IMG/VR virus record: IMGVR_UViG_2703718778_000007
Location: 1 to 38,962 of that record
Direction: 5' to 3' (one strand)
Length of the DNA stretch: 38,962 bases
Origin: a virus
Taxonomy: Duplodnaviria; Heunggongvirae; Uroviricota; Caudoviricetes
A program made the position numbers and the translations under genes. This document shows, in pieces, positions 1 to 38,962 of the stretch. Numbering within the stretch: position 1 is the first letter of the stretch; each line of letters begins with the position of its first letter. Below the pieces are notes generated by a model, which did not search any database, had not been told where the DNA came from, and saw only the letters and a list, made by a program, of their open reading frames with translations.

Positions 1-1248
1 ATGGCACTGAATATTCCATTCAGAAATGCGTACTATCGTTTTGCATCCAGTTACTCATTTCTCTTTTTTATTTCCTGGTCGCTGTGGTGGTCGTTATACG
101 CTATTTGGCTGAAAGGACATCTAGGGTTGACAGGGACGGAATTAGGTACACTTTATTCGGTCAACCAGTTTACCAGCATTCTATTTATGATGTTCTACGG
201 CATCGTTCAGGATAAACTCGGTCTGAAGAAACCGCTCATCTGGTGTATGAGTTTCATCCTGGTCTTGACCGGACCGTTTATGATTTACGTTTATGAACCG
301 TTACTGCAAAGCAATTTTTCTGTAGGTCTAATTCTGGGGGCGCTATTTTTTGGCTTGGGGTATCTGGCGGGATGCGGTTTGCTTGATAGCTTCACCGAAA
401 AAATGGCGCGAAATTTTCATTTCGAATATGGAACAGCGCGCGCCTGGGGATCTTTTGGCTATGCTATTGGCGCGTTCTTTGCCGGCATATTTTTTAGTAT
501 CAGTCCCCATATCAACTTCTGGTTGGTCTCGCTATTTGGCGCTGTATTTATGATGATCAACATGCGTTTTAAAGATAAGGATCACCAGTGCGTAGCGGCA
601 GATGCGGGAGGGGTAAAAAAAGAGGATTTTATCGCAGTTTTCAAGGATCGAAACTTCTGGGTTTTCGTCATATTTATTGTGGGGACGTGGTCTTTCTATA
701 ACATTTTTGATCAACAACTTTTTCCTGTCTTTTATTCAGGTTTATTCGAATCACACGATGTAGGAACGCGCCTGTATGGTTATCTCAACTCATTCCAGGT
801 GGTACTCGAAGCGCTGTGCATGGCGATTATTCCTTTCTTTGTGAATCGGGTAGGGCCAAAAAATGCATTACTTATCGGAGTTGTGATTATGGCGTTGCGT
901 ATCCTTTCCTGCGCGCTGTTCGTTAACCCCTGGATTATTTCATTAGTGAAGTTGTTACATGCCATTGAGGTTCCACTTTGTGTCATATCCGTCTTCAAAT
1001 ACAGCGTGGCAAACTTTGATAAGCGCCTGTCGTCGACGATCTTTCTGATTGGTTTTCAAATTGCCAGTTCGCTTGGGATTGTGCTGCTTTCAACGCCGAC
1101 TGGGATACTCTTTGACCACGCAGGCTACCAAACAGTTTTCTTCGCAATTTCGGGTATTGTCTGCCTGATGTTGCTATTTGGCATTTTCTTCTTGAGTAAA
1201 AAACGCGAGCAAATAGTTATGGAAACGCCTGTACCTTCAGCAATATAG
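1..1248 (+). CDS. cscB: Sucrose:H+ symporter (MFS, oligosaccharide:H+ symporter/LacY family)
   Basis: 415-aa ORF, 12-TM-like hydrophobic profile; N-terminus MALNIPFRNAYYRFASSYSFLFF... matches CscB as I remember it; csc locus is known to sit next to argW. Confidence 0.85.
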   Translation: MALNIPFRNAYYRFASSYSFLFFISWSLWWSLYAIWLKGHLGLTGTELGTLYSVNQFTSILFMMFYGIVQDKLGLKKPLIWCMSFILVLTGPFMIYVYEPLLQSNFSVGLILGALFFGLGYLAGCGLLDSFTEKMARNFHFEYGTARAWGSFGYAIGAFFAGIFFSISPHINFWLVSLFGAVFMMINMRFKDKDHQCVAADAGGVKKEDFIAVFKDRNFWVFVIFIVGTWSFYNIFDQQLFPVFYSGLFESHDVGTRLYGYLNSFQVVLEALCMAIIPFFVNRVGPKNALLIGVVIMALRILSCALFVNPWIISLVKLLHAIEVPLCVISVFKYSVANFDKRLSSTIFLIGFQIASSLGIVLLSTPTGILFDHAGYQTVFFAISGIVCLMLLFGIFFLSKKREQIVMETPVPSAI

Positions 1249-1689
1249 ACGTAAACTTTTTCCGGTTGTTGTCGATAGCTCTATATCCCTCAACCGGAAA
1301 ATAATAATAGTAAAATGCTTAGCCCTGCTAATAATCGCCTAATCCAAACGCCTCATTCATGTTCTGGTACAGTCGCTCAAATGTACTTCAGATGCGCGGT
1401 TCGCTGATTTCCAGGACATTGTCGTCATTCAGTGACCTGTCCCGTGTATCACGGTCCTGCGAATTCATCAAGGAATGCATTGCGGAGTGAAGTATCGAGT
1501 CACGCCATATTTCGCTATCAGGATTCTGTGTGATGGTTACATCGCCCGGCTCAGGGCTGTTTAGTCATCAGCGCTTTCTGACAGTGCTGAGATTTCAACC
1601 TGTTGCAGTAAAAATGAGTAGATATAAGGCAAGTGTGCTGCCAAACCCATCTTTTACGGGGTGAAGGTAGATTTCGTTTGAAGGGTATC

Positions 1690-1704
1690 TGGTGTCCCCT
1701 GCAG
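1690..1704 (-). other. Putative attR core (reverse complement of tRNA-Arg argW 3' end CTGCAGGGGACACCA)
   Basis: TGGTGTCCCCTGCAG present about 75 bp from the excisionase gene; argW 3' end recalled from memory. Confidence 0.5.
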
Positions 1705-1777
1705 ACATCTACTTGAAGCGGCAGGGGATTGATTGGAATGGTGTTTTTTAGATGTGAAAAATATTTTACCCGCTATT

Positions 1778-1978
1778 TTACCCATTGGCGCGGCTTAAGA
1801 GCTTATTTTTGAATTCACAATGGTCACGATATAACCATCTTGCTCGTCCGTGGATAACTTTGGCTTTAGGCAGGTCGCCGGACTTAATCCGGTCATAGAT
1901 GAAGGTCTTACCGAAGCCAGTATCAGCCATGATGAATTTCAAATCAACCAGTGAATCAGGTTGTAGTTCGTGTTGCAT
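1778..1978 (-). CDS. torI: Excisionase / recombination directionality factor (TorI/AlpA-like winged helix)
   Basis: 66-aa ORF MQHELQPDSLVDLKFIMADTGFGKTFIYDRIKSGDLPKAKVIHGRARW...; position next to att at the end opposite the integrase. Confidence 0.7.
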   Translation of the reverse strand: MQHELQPDSLVDLKFIMADTGFGKTFIYDRIKSGDLPKAKVIHGRARWLYRDHCEFKNKLLSRANG

Positions 1979-2100
1979 GAGTGCTATCTCCGAATATGGA
2001 ATCGAACCTGCAAATCAGGCAATAAAAAGCCGCATTGATGCAGCAATGGTAGGTCTGGATATCTTGAGAAATGAACAGGCCTCATCGAGTGTGAGGCGGG

Positions 2101-2445
2101 TTAGTCCTTGCGTAGCTCGCTGATTCTTCTGTAAGTCTCTGGTGCTTTGTTCCCGTACGTCTTCATTTCAGACTTCAACAGAGCAACGAGTGAATCCCAT
2201 TCGTTGAGGATTCCTTTGAATGCCGGAACGCGCTTTGCAACCTTGTCGAATGAATCTCTGATTTCTGGAATCTGCTCAACAAGTGCAACGCATCGCCGAA
2301 AGTCTGCTGCGTCATGGGGAGCGCCGAAGTGATGACCATAGATATTCTTTTTCAGGCCACATGCGATTGAGGCAAGAGTTGCGCTACTGATGCCGACATC
2401 GCCAGTTGATTGCCATTTCAAAACCTTCATAGCCAAATCTGACAT
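2101..2445 (-). CDS. Hypothetical phage protein (114 aa)
   Basis: ORF with RBS GGAGACAAG before ATG; starts immediately downstream of a terminator, so expression probably needs read-through. Confidence 0.5.
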   Translation of the reverse strand: MSDLAMKVLKWQSTGDVGISSATLASIACGLKKNIYGHHFGAPHDAADFRRCVALVEQIPEIRDSFDKVAKRVPAFKGILNEWDSLVALLKSEMKTYGNKAPETYRRISELRKD

Positions 2446-2459
2446 TTCTTGTCTCCAAT

Positions 2460-2482
2460 AAAAAAAACCGCCATCAGGCGGC
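2460..2482 (-). terminator. Rho-independent terminator (leftward transcription)
   Basis: Minus strand reads GCCGCC-TGAT-GGCGG followed by 8 T; perfect GC stem. Confidence 0.65.
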
Positions 2483-2641
2483 TTGGTGTTCTTTCAGTTC
2501 TTCAATTCGAATATTGGTTACGTCTGCATGCGCTATCTGCGCCCATATCATCCAGTGGTTATAGCAGTCGTTGATGTCCTCTGCTTCGATAACCCTGTCG
2601 AATGGCTCTCCATTCCATTCACCTGTGACTCGGAAGTGCAT
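2474..2641 (-). CDS. Small hypothetical protein (55 aa) whose stop codon lies in the terminator stem
   Basis: Translated by hand: MHFRVTGEWNGEPFDRVIEAEDINDCYNHWMIWAQIAHADVTNIRIEELKEHQAA; RBS GGAG 7 nt upstream; below the ORF-track length cutoff. Confidence 0.4.
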   Translation of the reverse strand: MHFRVTGEWNGEPFDRVIEAEDINDCYNHWMIWAQIAHADVTNIRIEELKEHQAA

Positions 2642-2741
2642 TTATCATCTCCATAAAACAAAACCCGCCGTAGCGAGTTCAGATAAAAGAAATCCCCGCG
2701 AGTGCGAGGATTGTTATTCACCTTTAACGGCAAGTTGCAGG

Positions 2742-3374
2742 TTAGCCACGGTTTACCTCCTGCGGCGGTTCCGGTAGCGGCATCCAGTGAGTTGCTTGCT
2801 CAATACCATTACCCGGCTTAATCGTTGCATCTCCGCGCCGAAAGGTGCTTCCGGTATAGCGTGCGGAGCATATTAGCGGTTCAACCAGAGAGCTATCGAA
2901 ATTCACCGAAATAAGCACGTTCTGGCCCTTTTCAGGCATTCGCTCACTACAGCTTATCCAACCATCCTTAATGCAATTACCTTGACTCTGAAGCATAGCG
3001 GCACGACAGGCGTTCCAGCCAGCTGTTCGCCCAAGCGCGTAAACTTCAGATGGCTCAAGATAATCAATGTCATTCCCGTCCTCATCGTCGTTCTCAGGTA
3101 ATGCAGCAGGTACTACCGGTACTGGCGGGGCGGCATAAACAGGAATAACGTCCGCTTGCTCTTTATTGCTTTCATCCGTTAAAGCCCAGAATAATTTCCC
3201 GGCCGGATGTTTGAAAATATAAGCAACTGGTTTTACTTCCAGCGATGCCAGCTCCAACTTGAACGCCTGAAGCTCAATGGCACTGTTGGTATCCAGTCCA
3301 AACGGTAATTCATCACGATTGGCTTCGTATTCAGCGATAGTTTGCTTCAGCCATTCTTTGGTTAGTTCAGCCAT
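2742..3374 (-). CDS. Phage protein with C-terminal DUF551-like domain
   Basis: Internal ATG at 3374 preceded by AAGGGGAA, 4 nt after upstream stop; C-terminal motif W..HWMPLPEPP typical of DUF551. Confidence 0.6.
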   Translation of the reverse strand: MAELTKEWLKQTIAEYEANRDELPFGLDTNSAIELQAFKLELASLEVKPVAYIFKHPAGKLFWALTDESNKEQADVIPVYAAPPVPVVPAALPENDDEDGNDIDYLEPSEVYALGRTAGWNACRAAMLQSQGNCIKDGWISCSERMPEKGQNVLISVNFDSSLVEPLICSARYTGSTFRRGDATIKPGNGIEQATHWMPLPEPPQEVNRG

Positions 3375-3378
3375 ATCC

Positions 3379-4104
3379 CTAATTCCCCTTGATGCTGACT
3401 TTGACGCCAACCTTGCGAATCTCATCGGCGCATCTGTTCACGATACTCCGGTGAAACTCACAAAAAATTTTCGCCGACTGCGGCCCTAATGGGTGAACAT
3501 CGTGCGCACGCGGCAGTACAACCTCCCGTGCTTCCAGTTCTGCAATGCGCTTCTCTGCGGCTTCCAGCTTCTCGCGCATATCGTCAACGTACTCGACCAG
3601 AGATCCGCCAGCAGGGATTTCGCACTCCTCGACCAGTTGGAAGTAGATATCAGCTGCGGCCCGTGTGTTGCTATGCCTAGCGTCGCCCATCTCACCTTCA
3701 CGAAGAGCATCGCGTTCGGCGGTAAGATTGGCTATTTTGCTGTCTTTGCCTTCCAGCTCAACGCGCAGCTTCCCTACCGTTAGCGCAATATCCTCGTTCT
3801 CCTGGTCACGGCGTTTGATGTATTGCTGGTTTCTTTCCAGTTCATCCAGTAATGCCAGCACGGTAGCCGGATTGGCTGCGGCGATGAATTCAGCATTGGC
3901 CTGCTGTTCCATTTGGAAATCTTCATCGAAACCGCTTTCAGGATGCGCTCCTTCAATTCTGCAAATGGGAAGATATCCAACAACTTCACGATGAATTAGC
4001 GCATCACCAGCATCAAATCTCTCCTCTCCATATTCGAGCGACCACACGCCACACGTTGCTTTCTCTGCCTTTTCACGCAGTGCCTGATAGTTAATTTTGG
4101 TCAT
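3379..4104 (-). CDS. Ea22-like early protein (coiled-coil)
   Basis: 241 aa, acidic coiled-coil centre, resembles lambda Ea22 family proteins. Confidence 0.55.
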   Translation of the reverse strand: MTKINYQALREKAEKATCGVWSLEYGEERFDAGDALIHREVVGYLPICRIEGAHPESGFDEDFQMEQQANAEFIAAANPATVLALLDELERNQQYIKRRDQENEDIALTVGKLRVELEGKDSKIANLTAERDALREGEMGDARHSNTRAAADIYFQLVEECEIPAGGSLVEYVDDMREKLEAAEKRIAELEAREVVLPRAHDVHPLGPQSAKIFCEFHRSIVNRCADEIRKVGVKVSIKGN

Positions 4105-4105
4105 A

Positions 4106-4405
4106 TCACATCACCCTGAAGCCGTTGCATTTACGTAAGAAATCGCAGATATAGCCCTTCATTTTTTCATGCCAATCTCGATCATTCCCATTGCACCAAC
4201 CATCAGGTGGAGTCCAGTTTTCTATCAGAGCAGCCATTTTCTTTGCTTTCGCCGGAGTAGCTGTTGCGGTATCGCAGTAATGACGAGTGTCAACCAACGC
4301 ATCCATACCATCGATATCAAGTACGCAAAACCATGTGTGATTCGGAATTCCTACAGGTGGTATTTGTTGCCCACGTCGACGTTTATCAATAAGATATACA
4401 CTCAC
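4106..4405 (-). CDS. Hypothetical Cys-containing protein (about 99 aa, GTG start after AAGGAGG)
   Basis: Perfect RBS AAGGAGG 6 nt before GTG at 4405; ORF-track start at 4426 is also GTG. Confidence 0.45.
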
Positions 4406-4587
4406 TGGTTGCCTCCTTTGCGCCACATCGCATTCAGATATTTGTTTTGATTCACTGATGGAAAAGAATTTCTCTTAAGTGATTCCTCTCTCGATGGCAT
4501 TGGCTTTACGCGTTGGCGAATAATCATTTCTGCCGGAAGAATGCCGGGATTGTATGCAAGTCCTCTCATGGTAAATTCCTCAGTCAT
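4402..4587 (-). CDS. Hypothetical small protein (about 61 aa)
   Basis: Internal ATG at 4587 just after stop of the upstream ORF; longer ORF-track version overlaps the neighbour. Confidence 0.3.
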
Positions 4588-4876
4588 TACTGATGGCGCC
4601 ATAGCGTGAGCGGTAATTACGCAGGCGCGGGTCGATATATTCAGGGAAGTGGGTATATGTGGCTTTGCGGAATGGTCGGATTGATGTCTGGTAAATTCTC
4701 TCGCGTTCTTCTTTCTCTGCAAGCCATATACAATGGCGAAATTCCTTTTCCTCTTTCGTTTCCTGCGGTAGAGACATTATCCGGTCGTAGTTTTTCCTGA
4801 ATTTATCCAGCACCTCCGATACGGAATTGCCGGAACAGCGGCGCGGGTCATCCGCACCATACAGAGGCGCTGGCAT
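4580..4876 (-). CDS. Hypothetical phage protein (98 aa)
   Basis: Intact ORF in the early-left operon, no recognised family. Confidence 0.45.
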
Positions 4877-4899
4877 AATTAAATCCTTATTTTTCTGAA

Positions 4900-5283
4900 T
4901 CAGAATGGGATGGAATCGTCGTATACAGGAGTGTTCTGCTGGTTACTACTTTGCTGCTGCGGGCCATTTCCTGAAGCTGCAAATCCAATCTTTGCATTCA
5001 GTAATTCAAGAGTGATTGATTGACCATTTTGCCCCTGATAAACATCAACCCTGATGTTTTCTCCGGTAATTTCAACAATGCCACCTTCAACAAGAACACT
5101 ACGGTAGTAATCCACTTGCGCTCCCGGCTTGGCAAATACAACGGCGCTGTAGTTTGTCCATTCTTTCTTTTTTGTCTGGCGATCGTAATACTGAACGCCA
5201 GCACGGATGTTGAATCCGATATTTTCCCCGGCCTGAAACTCTCTTGCGGGCTTGTTTAGTCTTACAGTAATCGAATGTGCCAT
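4900..5283 (-). CDS. Single-stranded DNA-binding protein (phage SSB)
   Basis: Start at internal ATG 5283 (overlaps erf stop); Gln/Gly-rich linker and C-terminal DDSIPF tail, the canonical SSB acidic tip. Confidence 0.7.
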   Translation of the reverse strand: MAHSITVRLNKPAREFQAGENIGFNIRAGVQYYDRQTKKKEWTNYSAVVFAKPGAQVDYYRSVLVEGGIVEITGENIRVDVYQGQNGQSITLELLNAKIGFAASGNGPQQQSSNQQNTPVYDDSIPF

Positions 5284-5888
5284 TAAGCTGCCGCTCCTTC
5301 TAATTCGCCTCGTCTGATGTTGTAAACGTCCTGCGCTTTGTGCTGCTCCGGTGTGCCTTCGAGCATCTTCCACGCTTTGGCGAACGCCTGTTTAAGCTCT
5401 TCTACGGTGTTTTTCTGCATTGCTGCGTCAGTGAATGCTTTTAGAACCTGTTCAGATGTAGGTGATGGTTTTGATTGCTTTGCTGCTGCGTTCTGCTGAT
5501 GTTTATGCTCGTCTGTATCTGCATCTTTCGCATCATCAATGCCGAACAAACCATTGAGGCAATACTTGCGTGCATAAGAGCTTGTAGCTCCCGTAACTTG
5601 TGCAGAATCCATTCCTTTCTTGCTTTCTTCCTCTCGTGCTAGTGCGGTTGCCGTATGACTGTTTTCGCCATCGGTAATAGTTGCCGTTGCTTTCACGTAA
5701 TACCGATCACCAATCAACACAACTTCATCGCTGATTGATAAAAACAGGCCATTCAGTAACGGCTTAACTCCTTCAAGAATGTCTTCGCAGCTTCTGTATT
5801 TATATTTACCGAATGAGTTGTACTGATTCTTTGGCGCGTTCAAGTTCTCCTGAATAGCTGCCAGTCTTGCGTAAAATTCTTTGCTCAT
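5283..5888 (-). CDS. erf: Erf-family single-strand annealing recombinase
   Basis: First ATG at 5888; resembles P22 Erf-type proteins; paired with SSB as in P22-like recombination modules. Confidence 0.65.
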   Translation of the reverse strand: MSKEFYARLAAIQENLNAPKNQYNSFGKYKYRSCEDILEGVKPLLNGLFLSISDEVVLIGDRYYVKATATITDGENSHTATALAREEESKKGMDSAQVTGATSSYARKYCLNGLFGIDDAKDADTDEHKHQQNAAAKQSKPSPTSEQVLKAFTDAAMQKNTVEELKQAFAKAWKMLEGTPEQHKAQDVYNIRRGELEGAAA

Positions 5889-5977
5889 ATGTTTGTTCTC
5901 AGAATGGGCATGGCCCAAGGAAATAACGCTGATTTAATACTTCAGTCTTTGCCGCATTCAAAAATACGCGAACACCT

Positions 5978-6148
5978 TCACGATCTCCCTTCTGGCGATA
6001 CATTAACGCCTGCTGCGTGTACATGCGTCTCTGTAACTTGCTCTCCTTCACTGTGGTTGCAAGTGACATGAATATCTCCTTCGTTACCGATTAATTCTTT
6101 CATCTGACGAATGAATTCTTCGTCTGACCAGTTATCTGTAAAACTCAT
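5978..6148 (-). CDS. Hypothetical small acidic protein (about 56 aa)
   Basis: ATG at 6148 overlaps the Kil-like stop (ATGA). Confidence 0.3.
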   Translation of the reverse strand: MSFTDNWSDEEFIRQMKELIGNEGDIHVTCNHSEGEQVTETHVHAAGVNVSPEGRS

Positions 6149-6297
6149 TTCCTGCGATACCACGGAAGGTTGATAGCTGATTTCATCTCTTTATTTGCTT
6201 CAAGCCACATTTTTGAATCACCAATAAATCTGGCTATTACTGCTTTGTTTTGTGCCGCACGAAGCATCTGGTGATTGATGGCTATTTCATTGCGCAT
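6145..6297 (-). CDS. kil: Kil-like host cell division inhibitor (50 aa)
   Basis: Hand-translated MRNEIAINHQMLRAAQNKAVIARFIGDSKMWLEANKEMK...; the IARFIGDSKMW segment resembles lambda Kil IATFIGDEKMF; RBS GGAGG. Confidence 0.45.
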   Translation of the reverse strand: MRNEIAINHQMLRAAQNKAVIARFIGDSKMWLEANKEMKSAINLPWYRRK

Positions 6298-6416
6298 AAC
6301 GCCTCCAGTTGTTTCTTTGCTGCTCTGATTAATTGTTTAACTCGGCGTGATAATTCAGATTCGTGCGGGTAGAAAGCGGACATGACGCCGCTACCCGCGA
6401 GCTGAAAGTGCATCAT
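6282..6416 (-). CDS. cIII: CIII-like FtsH inhibitor (44 aa)
   Basis: Hand-translated MMHFQLAGSGVMSAFYPHESELSRRVKQLIRAAKKQLEAL...; resembles lambda CIII core PSESLLERITRKLR; RBS AAGGAG. Confidence 0.5.
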   Translation of the reverse strand: MMHFQLAGSGVMSAFYPHESELSRRVKQLIRAAKKQLEALCAMK

Positions 6417-6482
6417 GGGTAACTCCTTATATTTGATTGCATAACGAAAACGCCTCGAGTGAAGCGTTATTGGTATGCATAT

Positions 6483-6506
6483 AAAAAGGCCCTCACACTG
6501 GAGGGC
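6483..6506 (-). terminator. Rho-independent terminator (leftward), tL-like
   Basis: Minus strand GCCCTC-loop-GAGGGC followed by T-run (A-run 6483-6487 on plus). Confidence 0.55.
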
Positions 6507-6610
6507 AAAGAAGATTTACAATAATCAGAACAAGTCGGCTCCTGTTTAGTTACGAGCGACATTGCTCCGTGTATTCACTCGTTGGAATGAATACACAGTG
6601 CTTATTTGTA

Positions 6611-7081
6611 CTAATAAAATACCCAATTTTCTGTTTCTTGGTTGTGTCCAAAGTTATATTCAATATCTGGTGTTGATGTATCAATATTCTTCATCCCATC
6701 AACAAGAGTTGATACAACAGCCAAATCTTGTTTGATTCTCATTAAATGGTACTTCTTCCGGCGCAATAAACTTTCAATGGCAAGTTTCTTCGTTGGGAAT
6801 GCAAAAGATCTTTCTGCATTTTTTGCTACTTTCTTAATTGCATATCTATTTCTCCTTTGTTTCCATTCCTGTAACCACTGATTTGGTGCTGGTTTAAAAT
6901 TAACAATCCAATGCGCAGGAACCAACCATGCATAATGCTCTGTCTGATGAAAAGCTATATATTGAAGTGCGAATATTTTTATCCCATCTTCTTCAACTGT
7001 CGCCTGGAATCTCCAGAAAACAGGCATTCCATCATGTTCAGTTTCTGATTCAGGAAAAGGTACGCTCCATGATTTTGTCAT
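6611..7081 (-). CDS. Hypothetical AT-rich moron protein (156 aa) directly downstream of N
   Basis: Intact ORF; segment 6600-7090 is clearly more AT-rich than flanking phage DNA; followed by a 9-bp-stem hairpin at 6570-6597. Confidence 0.55.
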   Translation of the reverse strand: MTKSWSVPFPESETEHDGMPVFWRFQATVEEDGIKIFALQYIAFHQTEHYAWLVPAHWIVNFKPAPNQWLQEWKQRRNRYAIKKVAKNAERSFAFPTKKLAIESLLRRKKYHLMRIKQDLAVVSTLVDGMKNIDTSTPDIEYNFGHNQETENWVFY

Positions 7082-7089
7082 ATCTCACC

Positions 7090-7389
7090 TCAAATAAGTG
7101 GTTTGCTGCCTAATTTCATTTTCTGGCGACCAACACAAGTCACACCCATTTCACTGCGTGGCTTGCGGTAGTAAATACGGTTCTGTTTACGCTCGACTTC
7201 TTCTGCCTTCTTGCAGCGAAGGCTTCCGAGTGATGCTGCTTTATCTGCTCTGACGCAACCAGAGAGCTTTAGCGCAATTTTTCGTGCCAATCGCTGTTCT
7301 TGCATTGCCTGTTCACGTTGAGCCTGTCTGCGTGCTCTGCGGCGATTTCTGGCGTTATCGTCAGCCAGATATGTAATGACTACTGTCAT
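7090..7389 (-). CDS. N: Antitermination protein N (lambda-type)
   Basis: Arg-rich motif NARNRRRARRQAQREQ near N-terminus; C-terminus RIYYRKPRSEMGVTCVGRQKMKLGSKPLI aligns with lambda N C-terminus; RBS GAGGT. Confidence 0.75.
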   Translation of the reverse strand: MTVVITYLADDNARNRRRARRQAQREQAMQEQRLARKIALKLSGCVRADKAASLGSLRCKKAEEVERKQNRIYYRKPRSEMGVTCVGRQKMKLGSKPLI

Positions 7390-7445
7390 GTTGACCTCAG
7401 ATGAAACAACTTTGGAATTGATAGTGATTGCAAAGTGGTTTCTGG

Positions 7446-37804: not shown

Positions 37805-38962
37805 CTATGACACCTTCTCATCAATCCAGTCCGCCCACCACTGCATCATTTCTCTGCGCTTATCGAGATACTGAGCATGGTTGTAAATCCCACGCACAGA
37901 TCCGCCGTTGGCATGTGCAAGTTGCACTTCAATAGCGTCAGCAGGCCATTCGTGCTCGTTCATAATCGTACTGAATTCATGCCTGAATCCGTGACCGCTT
38001 TCCAGACCCTCATAGCCGATTTGTTTGATCACAAGTAGCACCGCGTTCTCGCAGATTGGCTTCTTCTTATCGTTGCGTCCGGCAAAAACAAACTCTGATA
38101 CTGGTTTGGTGATTGAGCTTAGCGTAGTGAGAAGTTCAACTACCTGGTCTGACATCGGTACTACATGAATCTTGCGGCCCTTCATCACATTGGCGTCGAT
38201 GGTGATAATCCTGTTTTCAAAATCGACGTTCTTCCATTGCATGGAACGAAGCTCTTTCGTTCTTAGGGCTGTATAGCGTAAAACCTTGGTGGCAATGAGC
38301 GATACGATACTTCCTGAAAATGTTGCCAGTGCTTTGTTGAATGCCGGGATCTGGTCTGCAGGAAGAAACGGGAAGTTCTTCTTGCGGTATCCCTTCATGG
38401 CGTCAGCAAGGTCAGGTGCCGGGTTATATTTAGCCCTGCCGGTGACAATAGCGTAACGGAAAACCTCGCCGCATCTTCTGCGTGCTTTGTTGGCTCGCTC
38501 CATTGCACCGCGATCTTCAAATCTGCGGATTACTTCCAGCAGTTGCATCGGCTCAATATCCTGAATTTCAAGGCCGCCGATGACAGGTAAAATGTCGTCA
38601 TCAAACATTTTTGCAAGTTCAGTCGCATACCCTACTGACCATACTTGCTTCTTGTGCTCGTACCATTCCTTGTAAATCGCACTAAAGGAATTGTTGTTAG
38701 ACGAAGCCTTTTTCGCCTTTACCGGATCGATGCCAACCGAGATGTCTTTCCTCGCAGTCCATGCTTTATCCCTTGCTTCCTGCAAAGTCATAAGCGGATA
38801 TTTTCCGACAGTCAGGATTTTCTCCTTACCGTCAATCTTGTAGCGAAGCTGCCATACCTTTTTCCCGGATACAGGGACATAAAGGTACAGGCCATTACCA
38901 TCGAGAAGGCGGTATGGTTTTTCTTTCGGCTTAGCTGCTTCAATCTGCTTAACGGTGAGCAT
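37805..38962 (-). CDS. intS: Tyrosine integrase (IntS-type)
   Basis: 385 aa; N-terminus MLTVKQIEAAKPKEKPYRLLDGNGLYLYV and C-terminal HGFRH...Y catalytic region; start codon is the last 3 bases of the window. Confidence 0.85.
   Translation of the reverse strand: MLTVKQIEAAKPKEKPYRLLDGNGLYLYVPVSGKKVWQLRYKIDGKEKILTVGKYPLMTLQEARDKAWTARKDISVGIDPVKAKKASSNNNSFSAIYKEWYEHKKQVWSVGYATELAKMFDDDILPVIGGLEIQDIEPMQLLEVIRRFEDRGAMERANKARRRCGEVFRYAIVTGRAKYNPAPDLADAMKGYRKKNFPFLPADQIPAFNKALATFSGSIVSLIATKVLRYTALRTKELRSMQWKNVDFENRIITIDANVMKGRKIHVVPMSDQVVELLTTLSSITKPVSEFVFAGRNDKKKPICENAVLLVIKQIGYEGLESGHGFRHEFSTIMNEHEWPADAIEVQLAHANGGSVRGIYNHAQYLDKRREMMQWWADWIDEKVS

Follow-up and report, generated by a model that had tools for sequence, protein, structure and literature searches.

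The cscB–torI junction of a P22-like Escherichia coli prophage: an argW-derived attR core and a KplE1-type IntS/TorI module

Background

At the left end of a prophage genome recorded in IMG/VR (IMGVR_UViG_2703718778_000007), a host sucrose permease gene gives way to phage genes across an intergenic interval, raising the question of where exactly the bacterial chromosome stops, which host gene received the phage and how the recombination genes of the element are arranged around this junction. We addressed this question on the whole stretch of DNA (38,962 nt, hereafter the window), starting from an original prediction, made from the sequence alone, that assigned an attachment core derived from the tRNA gene argW to positions 1690–1704.

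The split layout of integrase and excisionase genes (int/xis), together with its regulatory consequences, was worked out for the KplE1 prophage between 2007 and 2012. Like the int-xis systems of lambda and P22, modules of the KplE1 type combine a heterobivalent tyrosine integrase, arm- and core-type sites, a small recombination directionality factor (RDF), IHF and excision by attL x attR recombination (PMC2951348). In lambda, however, int and xis remain neighbours at the same end of the prophage and share a transcript, whereas in KplE1-type modules attP is located between them (PMC2951348); integration therefore separates the integrase and RDF genes, and intS depends on an autoregulated promoter of its own. 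In KplE1 the core is duplicated and the intS promoter overlaps attL (PMC2951348, PMC3509656), this promoter being repressed by both IntS and TorI (PMC2951348). The KplE1 attL gathers IntS P′ sites, PintS and five TorI sites (GTTCG, GATCG, GTCCG), the latter forming two blocks (Panis et al. 2010, PMC2951348). Excision has been obtained in vitro with IntS, TorI and IHF on KplE1 and HK620 substrates (PMC2951348), and modules of this type are conserved in HK620, Sf6 and CUS-3 (PMC2951348, PMC3509656).

Methods

An unoccupied attachment site (attB) was reconstructed by joining positions 1300–1704 of the window to the argW–yfdC side of GPEC1292, and was queried against complete E. coli genomes. Draft contigs identical to the window were found by exact look-up of its proteins, contig L013 (GCA_015136235.1) being retrieved via the IntS protein. 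The two prophage ends were read in separate contigs (L013 and L018), each identical to one window end. The promoter upstream of torI was mapped by transferring HK620 features 1664–1702 and 1689–1701 with an offset of +321, taken from the ungapped match of window positions 1690–2033 to HK620 positions 1369–1712.

The argW-derived core

The sequence TGGTGTCCCCTGCAG occurs as a single copy in the window, exactly at 1690–1704, and was not found in any of 100 dinucleotide-preserving shuffles. As predicted, it is the exact reverse complement, over all 15 bases, of the 3′ end of argW. According to ARAGORN and RefSeq calls at related loci, argW encodes tRNA-Arg(CCT) (anticodon CCU) and ends with CTGCAGGGGACACCA, starting in the orientation of the window with TGGTGTCCCCTGCAGgaatcgaacc at the GPEC1292 and MS6192 loci. 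In the chromosomes of these two strains, intS is followed by 161 bp and then by tRNA-Arg(CCT) (ARAGORN, RefSeq). No second or degenerate core was detected elsewhere in the window with up to three mismatches allowed, and the weight is carried by the exact 15-mer match, because the pattern with three mismatches is no longer unusual.

The position of the crossover was resolved by comparing occupied and empty sites. The reconstructed attB is uninterrupted in 1414 of the 5426 complete E. coli genomes, with identities of up to 99.6%. One such empty site, that of APEC O78, reads cscK-cscB, a 441-bp spacer, then argW-yfdC. The comparison with an unoccupied cscB–argW junction, which the original prediction had proposed, revealed that the window agrees with APEC O78 through base 1704, save for position 1551 (T vs C), and diverges thereafter. 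In the three-way alignment, the attL side of GPEC1292 has the 15-mer alone in common with the window. From 1690 rightward, the window tracks K-12 KplE1 attR as well as HK620 and Sf6 attP, apart from substitutions at 1720 and 1758. Host identity thus extends up to 1704 and phage attP identity starts from 1690, from which it follows that the crossover block is 15 bp long.

Existing annotations coincide with this assignment, the K-12 counterpart of the attR core being annotated as pawZ, a 15-bp pseudogene, and a 16-bp "attP core" being annotated in HK620 and Sf6 at the aligned position (window 1689–1704). The core repeat of K-12 KplE1 is 16 bp long (CTGCAGGGGACACCAT, PMC2951348), and the base preceding TGGTG is C in the window and A in K-12. 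The additional base of the K-12 repeat is only a coincidental contribution of its dsdC-side flank. The predicted core length of 15–16 bp can consequently be narrowed, with 15 bp directly repeated here, corresponding to 15 of the 16 nt of K-12. Altogether, we identify the feature as the attR of a P22-like prophage integrated in E. coli argW and carrying the IntS/TorI module of KplE1, HK620 and Sf6, with a probability of about 0.95 (Table 1).

Table 1. Coordinates of the features at the two ends of the window
Feature	Position	Strand	Basis or remark
cscB, sucrose permease, flanking host gene; the window opens at its ATG	1–1248	+	Pfam LacY_symp, E 1.7e-193
Host-side spacer, from cscB to the argW 3′ end	1249–1689		Resident chromosomal DNA, occurs in unoccupied sites
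Decayed DUF4942 pseudogene fragment, ~aa 38–151 of a 281-aa protein	1337–1623	-	tblastn, Pfam
Hybrid 43-aa ORF	1654–1785	-	First 32 aa match HK620 HkaB (Sf6 gene 17/gp17)
attR core, duplicate of the argW 3′ end (CTGCAGGGGACACCA on the minus strand)	1690–1704	-	Three-way attR/attB/attL alignment
Phage-derived attR arm, i.e. the torI-side arm of attP	1705–1784		Two differences (1720, 1758) vs KplE1 attR and HK620/Sf6 attP
Pair of perfect direct TATTTTACCC repeats, period 12 bp (1762–1771, 1774–1783)	1762–1784	-	Repeat search
torI, recombination directionality factor (excisionase), last gene of the leftward early operon	1778–1978	-	K-12 TorI match
Counterpart of the pI promoter of HK620 (cII-activated, annotated "phage integration"), located upstream of hkaC/torI	1985–2023	-	Annotation transfer only
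intS, tyrosine integrase with arm-binding N-terminal domain	37805–38962	-	ORF and Pfam

The phage arm of attR

The phage arm carries two direct TATTTTACCC repeats, the second of which overlaps the torI stop codon (1778–1780), and the segment 1762–1784 is identical to HK620 repeat_region 1441–1463, annotated "attP". The reverse complement of the repeat, GGGTAAAATA, contains TAAA, a motif reported in all IntS P′ sites of KplE1 (Panis 2010, PMC2951348), and TTTTACCC is found four times in the window for 0.85 expected. With this TAAA core on the other strand, the repeats are probably IntS arm-type binding sites of attR, as judged from sequence. No exact match to the IHF consensus WATCAANNNNTTR was found in 1600–1800, and we therefore claim no IHF site there.

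The junction also creates a chimeric reading frame. HkaB of HK620 and gene 17 of Sf6 are annotated across the attP core, and integration splits this ORF, its C-terminus being replaced by host-derived sequence. The resulting 43-aa ORF is identical to HkaB residues 1–32 at 31 of 32 positions and diverges past the core; a functional gene is improbable here.

An inverted repeat of 8 bp without mismatches (TCCCCTGC/GCAGGGGA) was also observed at 1695–1702 and 1721–1728. Its arms are 18 nt apart, the first belonging to the core and the second to the phage arm. The repeat is conserved in K-12, HK620 and Sf6 and might reflect core-type IntS sites or hairpin formation by the leftward transcript.

The recombination genes

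The TorI-like gene, predicted at about 75 bp from the core, lies 73 bp away from it. Its 66-aa product is identical to K-12 TorI at all 66 positions and matches the full length of PDB 1z4h, "Tor inhibition protein" (E 6.6e-43, 100% identical); RefSeq names this ORF "response regulator inhibitor TorI". Pfam and NCBIfam returned no family for TorI, whose identity was established instead by direct comparison with K-12 TorI and PDB 1z4h.

At the other end, the 384-aa alignment of IntS with its K-12 counterpart shows 380 identities (99%), and the protein carries the Arm-DNA-bind_3, Phage_int_M and Phage_integrase domains of Pfam, all above cutoffs. The original prediction had placed the integrase at the end opposite to the core, reading out of the window. 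Its location was correct, but its direction has to be reversed, as intS (385 codons) has its ATG in the last three bases of the window and is transcribed inward, away from argW, as in K-12. The integrase and RDF genes thus occupy opposite ends of the prophage (attL-intS ... torI-attR), a layout identical to that of K-12. With TorI, IntS and an attR arm that differs at only two positions, the proposed KplE1/Sf6 arrangement, in which int sits beside attL and xis beside attR, was borne out.

A terminator-like hairpin was observed at 2029–2044 (minus strand), formed by GCTGCATCAATGCGGC then TTTTTATT. It lies upstream of the predicted pI region, exactly where the att-torI homology with HK620 and Sf6 stops (~2033). 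An Rfam scan of 1200–2100 (E<=1) gave RAGATH-25 as its sole hit, with 15 bits, at chance level.

The argW side and the extent of the prophage

A tRNA scan detected no tRNA gene inside the window, which was expected because argW lies outside it. The window starts exactly at the ATG of cscB (position 1) and ends exactly at the ATG of intS (38962); it was apparently cut at gene boundaries, hence leaving attL and argW just out of view. A complete tRNA gene had been predicted just beyond 38962, and the search for argW past this position had been named beforehand as the refuting test. Contig L013, which matches the final 4158 bp of the window without any mismatch, contains an intact tRNA-Arg(CCT) ending 161 bp upstream of the intS ATG, with CTGCAGGGGACACCA as its 3′ end, i.e. 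the same 15-mer. On the other side, contig L018 is identical to positions 1–7425 and runs on into cscK and cscA. Placed via L013, the attL core is located ~162–176 bp past the window end, and the distance from core to core is 37,434 bp. When 37400–38962 was compared with complete E. coli genomes, no full-length match exceeded 96.7%.

Over 239 positions, the attL arm of L013 departs from that of K-12 at four. Within this arm, five motifs are arranged as 2+3, namely GTTCG and GTCCG at 2847 and 2867, then GTTCG, GTTCG and GATCG at 2910, 2920 and 2930 (contig coordinates). A TTGACA hexamer at 2935 abuts the second motif block, and four GG(G/A)TAAAA-type sites follow at 2956–3000, extending to the intS ATG. 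This pattern is consistent with the published account of TorI sites, P′ sites and PintS (PMC2951348), suggesting that the corresponding elements would be present here.

The host-side spacer

On the other side of the core, the spacer separates argW from cscB, the product of which is named "cscB: sucrose MFS transporter" or "oligosaccharide MFS transporter" in RefSeq. It measures 441 bp, against 440 bp in the original prediction, which had rightly described it as non-coding; it has no ORF longer than 44 aa and is present at >=80% coverage in 2624 genomes. Being on the bacterial side of the crossover and present in empty sites, it is not phage arm DNA. A promoter and terminator scan of 1150–2150 returned nothing above shuffle expectation in the spacer.

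Its sole detectable homology is with DUF4942 genes. Using the DUF4942 protein of E. coli Nissle as a tblastn query, residues 76–151 aligned to 1337–1564 with 51% identity (E 1e-19) and one in-frame stop, while residues 38–65 weakly aligned to 1540–1623 in another frame (E 0.012). The fragment passes the Pfam DUF4942 cutoff (PF13708; 37.1 bits vs 25, profile positions 5–62 of 190), and the DNA of 1345–1546 shares 72–76% identity with DUF4942 genes at other E. coli loci. No intact ORF of ~280 aa is present, the sequence being interrupted by the in-frame stop and a frameshift, and RefSeq marks a pseudogene at 1391–1480 in some genomes. The spacer DUF4942 is a dead fragment and not a gene, and the spacer as a whole is host DNA older than this phage and largely made of this fragment. 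The suggestion that the spacer may hold decayed remnants was therefore correct in kind, with a DUF4942 scrap such as those of CP4-like islands, and incorrect in origin if a remnant of this phage was meant.

Where this scrap comes from can be read in a way that complements the attR assignment, namely as the scar of an older CP4-like island once integrated in argW and almost entirely deleted since. In the two contexts examined (Nissle and M24), a DUF4942 gene closes a CP4-like gene set of antirestriction, JAB, DUF987, CbeA, CbtA, DUF5983 and DUF957 genes, this DUF4942 gene being intact in Nissle and IS-disrupted in M24. In addition to its similarity to such genes at the Pfam, DNA and amino-acid levels, the spacer fragment points away from argW, as the distal gene of an argW-integrated island should, and argW is a recombination hotspot for csc/dsd replacement (PMC4366372). 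On the other hand, neither a second att core nor an att-like repeat or integrase remnant was found past the csc genes in APEC O78, the fragment lies only ~65–125 bp from the tRNA end, requiring a large internal deletion, and it could equally have come with the csc cassette by homologous replacement. We therefore consider the island scar as a tentative explanation, with the odds somewhat against it. A more specific scenario is that the spacer is the last scrap of a CP4-type island that occupied argW before P22-like phages, and that it was in association with this island, and not through a mere homologous replacement of dsdC and dsdX, that the csc operon arrived; we regard this scenario as rather unlikely.

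In APEC O78 (5766–5984), the csc cassette abuts a dsdX fragment devoid of its N-terminus, followed by an intact dsdA. This truncation indicates that the csc cassette replaced dsdC and most of dsdX in csc-type strains.

The original prediction had also allowed for recombinase-binding arm sites in the spacer, which would make 1249–1689 a part of the recombination site itself, either as arm-type sites or as what decay has left of the end of a previous IntS/TorI-type prophage. The spacer is indeed non-coding and lies directly against the core, and it includes a single, isolated GTTCG at 1399. These features are outweighed by its location on the bacterial side of the crossover, by its presence in unoccupied sites with one base different, by the absence from the spacer of GGGTAAAA-type and TTTTACCC motifs and of any second core even at three mismatches, and by its exclusive homology with DUF4942 genes. 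Moreover, K-12 has an entirely different flank (the dsdC side) and yet a functional attR (PMC2951348). Arm sites in the spacer are thus discarded as host DNA without arm-type motifs, and this reading is very improbable. Finally, a fortuitous 15-mer, with the true prophage end located elsewhere, is barely conceivable, since, although one hit is the chance expectation when up to three mismatches are tolerated, the exact sequence is absent from the shuffles, empty-site homology stops exactly at 1704 and phage attP homology begins exactly at the core.

Comparison with known elements

The attR assignment places the window element next to KplE1 (CPS-53) of E. coli K-12, with which it shares the integration site at the argW 3′ end and the core. 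TorI is 100% and IntS 99% identical between the two, the attR arm differs at two positions and the attL arm, as read in L013, at 4 of 239. In both, intS reads inward, from a promoter located in attL in KplE1 (PMC2951348). By contrast, KplE1 is defective, a remnant of 10.2 kb that lacks a repressor, whereas the window element is a full-length P22-like genome of 37.4 kb that carries head, tailspike, lysis and immunity regions. Their flanks also differ, with cscB for the window prophage and dsdC for KplE1.

The phages HK620 and Sf6 (Lederbergvirus) carry a torI homologue (hkaC in HK620; the gene 16/18 region in Sf6), attP and int on one strand, in the order expected for the phage form of the window element. 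The region 1690–2033 is 97.4% identical to the attP-hkaC region of HK620 (1369–1712), without gaps, and the annotated attP core and attP repeats of HK620 coincide with window positions 1689–1704 and 1762–1784. The late genes are ~95–96% identical to those of HK620, Sf6, N7 and vB_EcoP-683R2 over 58–63% of a 25-kb query, and no phage record covers >=80% of this query. Compared with HK620 and Sf6, the window is a mosaic, differing in its early genes, in the tailspike's C-terminal part and in the conversion gene; it also represents an integrated form, whereas the HK620 and Sf6 records are circular or linear phage forms. As a prophage, the element is a further Lederbergvirus-like mosaic.

Two further observations concern the genes associated with this module. 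In E. coli DETEC-S565 (3350–4700), we found the same cscB-spacer-attR-torI junction as in window 1100–2445, with 99.9% identity over 1100–2100. A neighbouring 345-nt gene has the product WP_001281193.1 in both the window and the DETEC-S565 records, as matched by identifier and not by alignment. The DETEC-S565 prophage is a lambda-like siphovirus with a Nu1/A-type terminase, a tape measure and gpJ. This junction is common to P22-like and lambda-like prophages, implying that the IntS/TorI module is exchanged across virion types.

Between the tailspike (34473–36341, with a Head_binding domain) and intS, the minus strand encodes a 368-aa Acyl_transf_3 protein (36384–37490). As this gene occupies the position of the O-antigen acetylase gene oac of Sf6, a role in lysogenic conversion is probable. 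In further contigs that have an identical IntS, gtrA, gtrB and gtr-type genes stand in place of the Acyl_transf_3 gene.

Proposed recombination mechanism

In the circular phage genome, torI (hkaC), attP and intS would follow each other on one strand, and IntS would recombine attP with the 3′ end of argW across the 15-bp block of identity. Integration would cut the module between torI and int, leaving torI beside attR and next to cscB, where it would close the leftward early operon. The intS gene would be left ~37 kb away, beside attL and a regenerated argW, with inward transcription from its own promoter in the attL arm. Excision would involve TorI acting on sites of the attL arm and IntS bridging arm-type and core sites with the assistance of IHF, a process shown for KplE1 and proposed here on the basis of near-identity. 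In the HK620 record, the cII-activated promoter annotated for "phage integration" lies upstream of hkaC, and the int-side arm holds a distinct one, labelled "prophage excision".

Significance for the prophage and its family

The attR junction and the split int/xis layout described here are already known, in agreement with Panis et al. (2010) and with the annotation of HK620 and Sf6, and our results matter little beyond annotation. They provide small additions only, i.e. a core repeat of 15 bp in csc-type strains and a host-side spacer that is a scrap of a DUF4942 pseudogene. The limits of the prophage are nonetheless fixed, from the attR core within the window to the attL core beyond its end. 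Finally, the IntS/TorI module is complete and near-canonical, and, as far as its sequence indicates, the element is therefore probably excisable.
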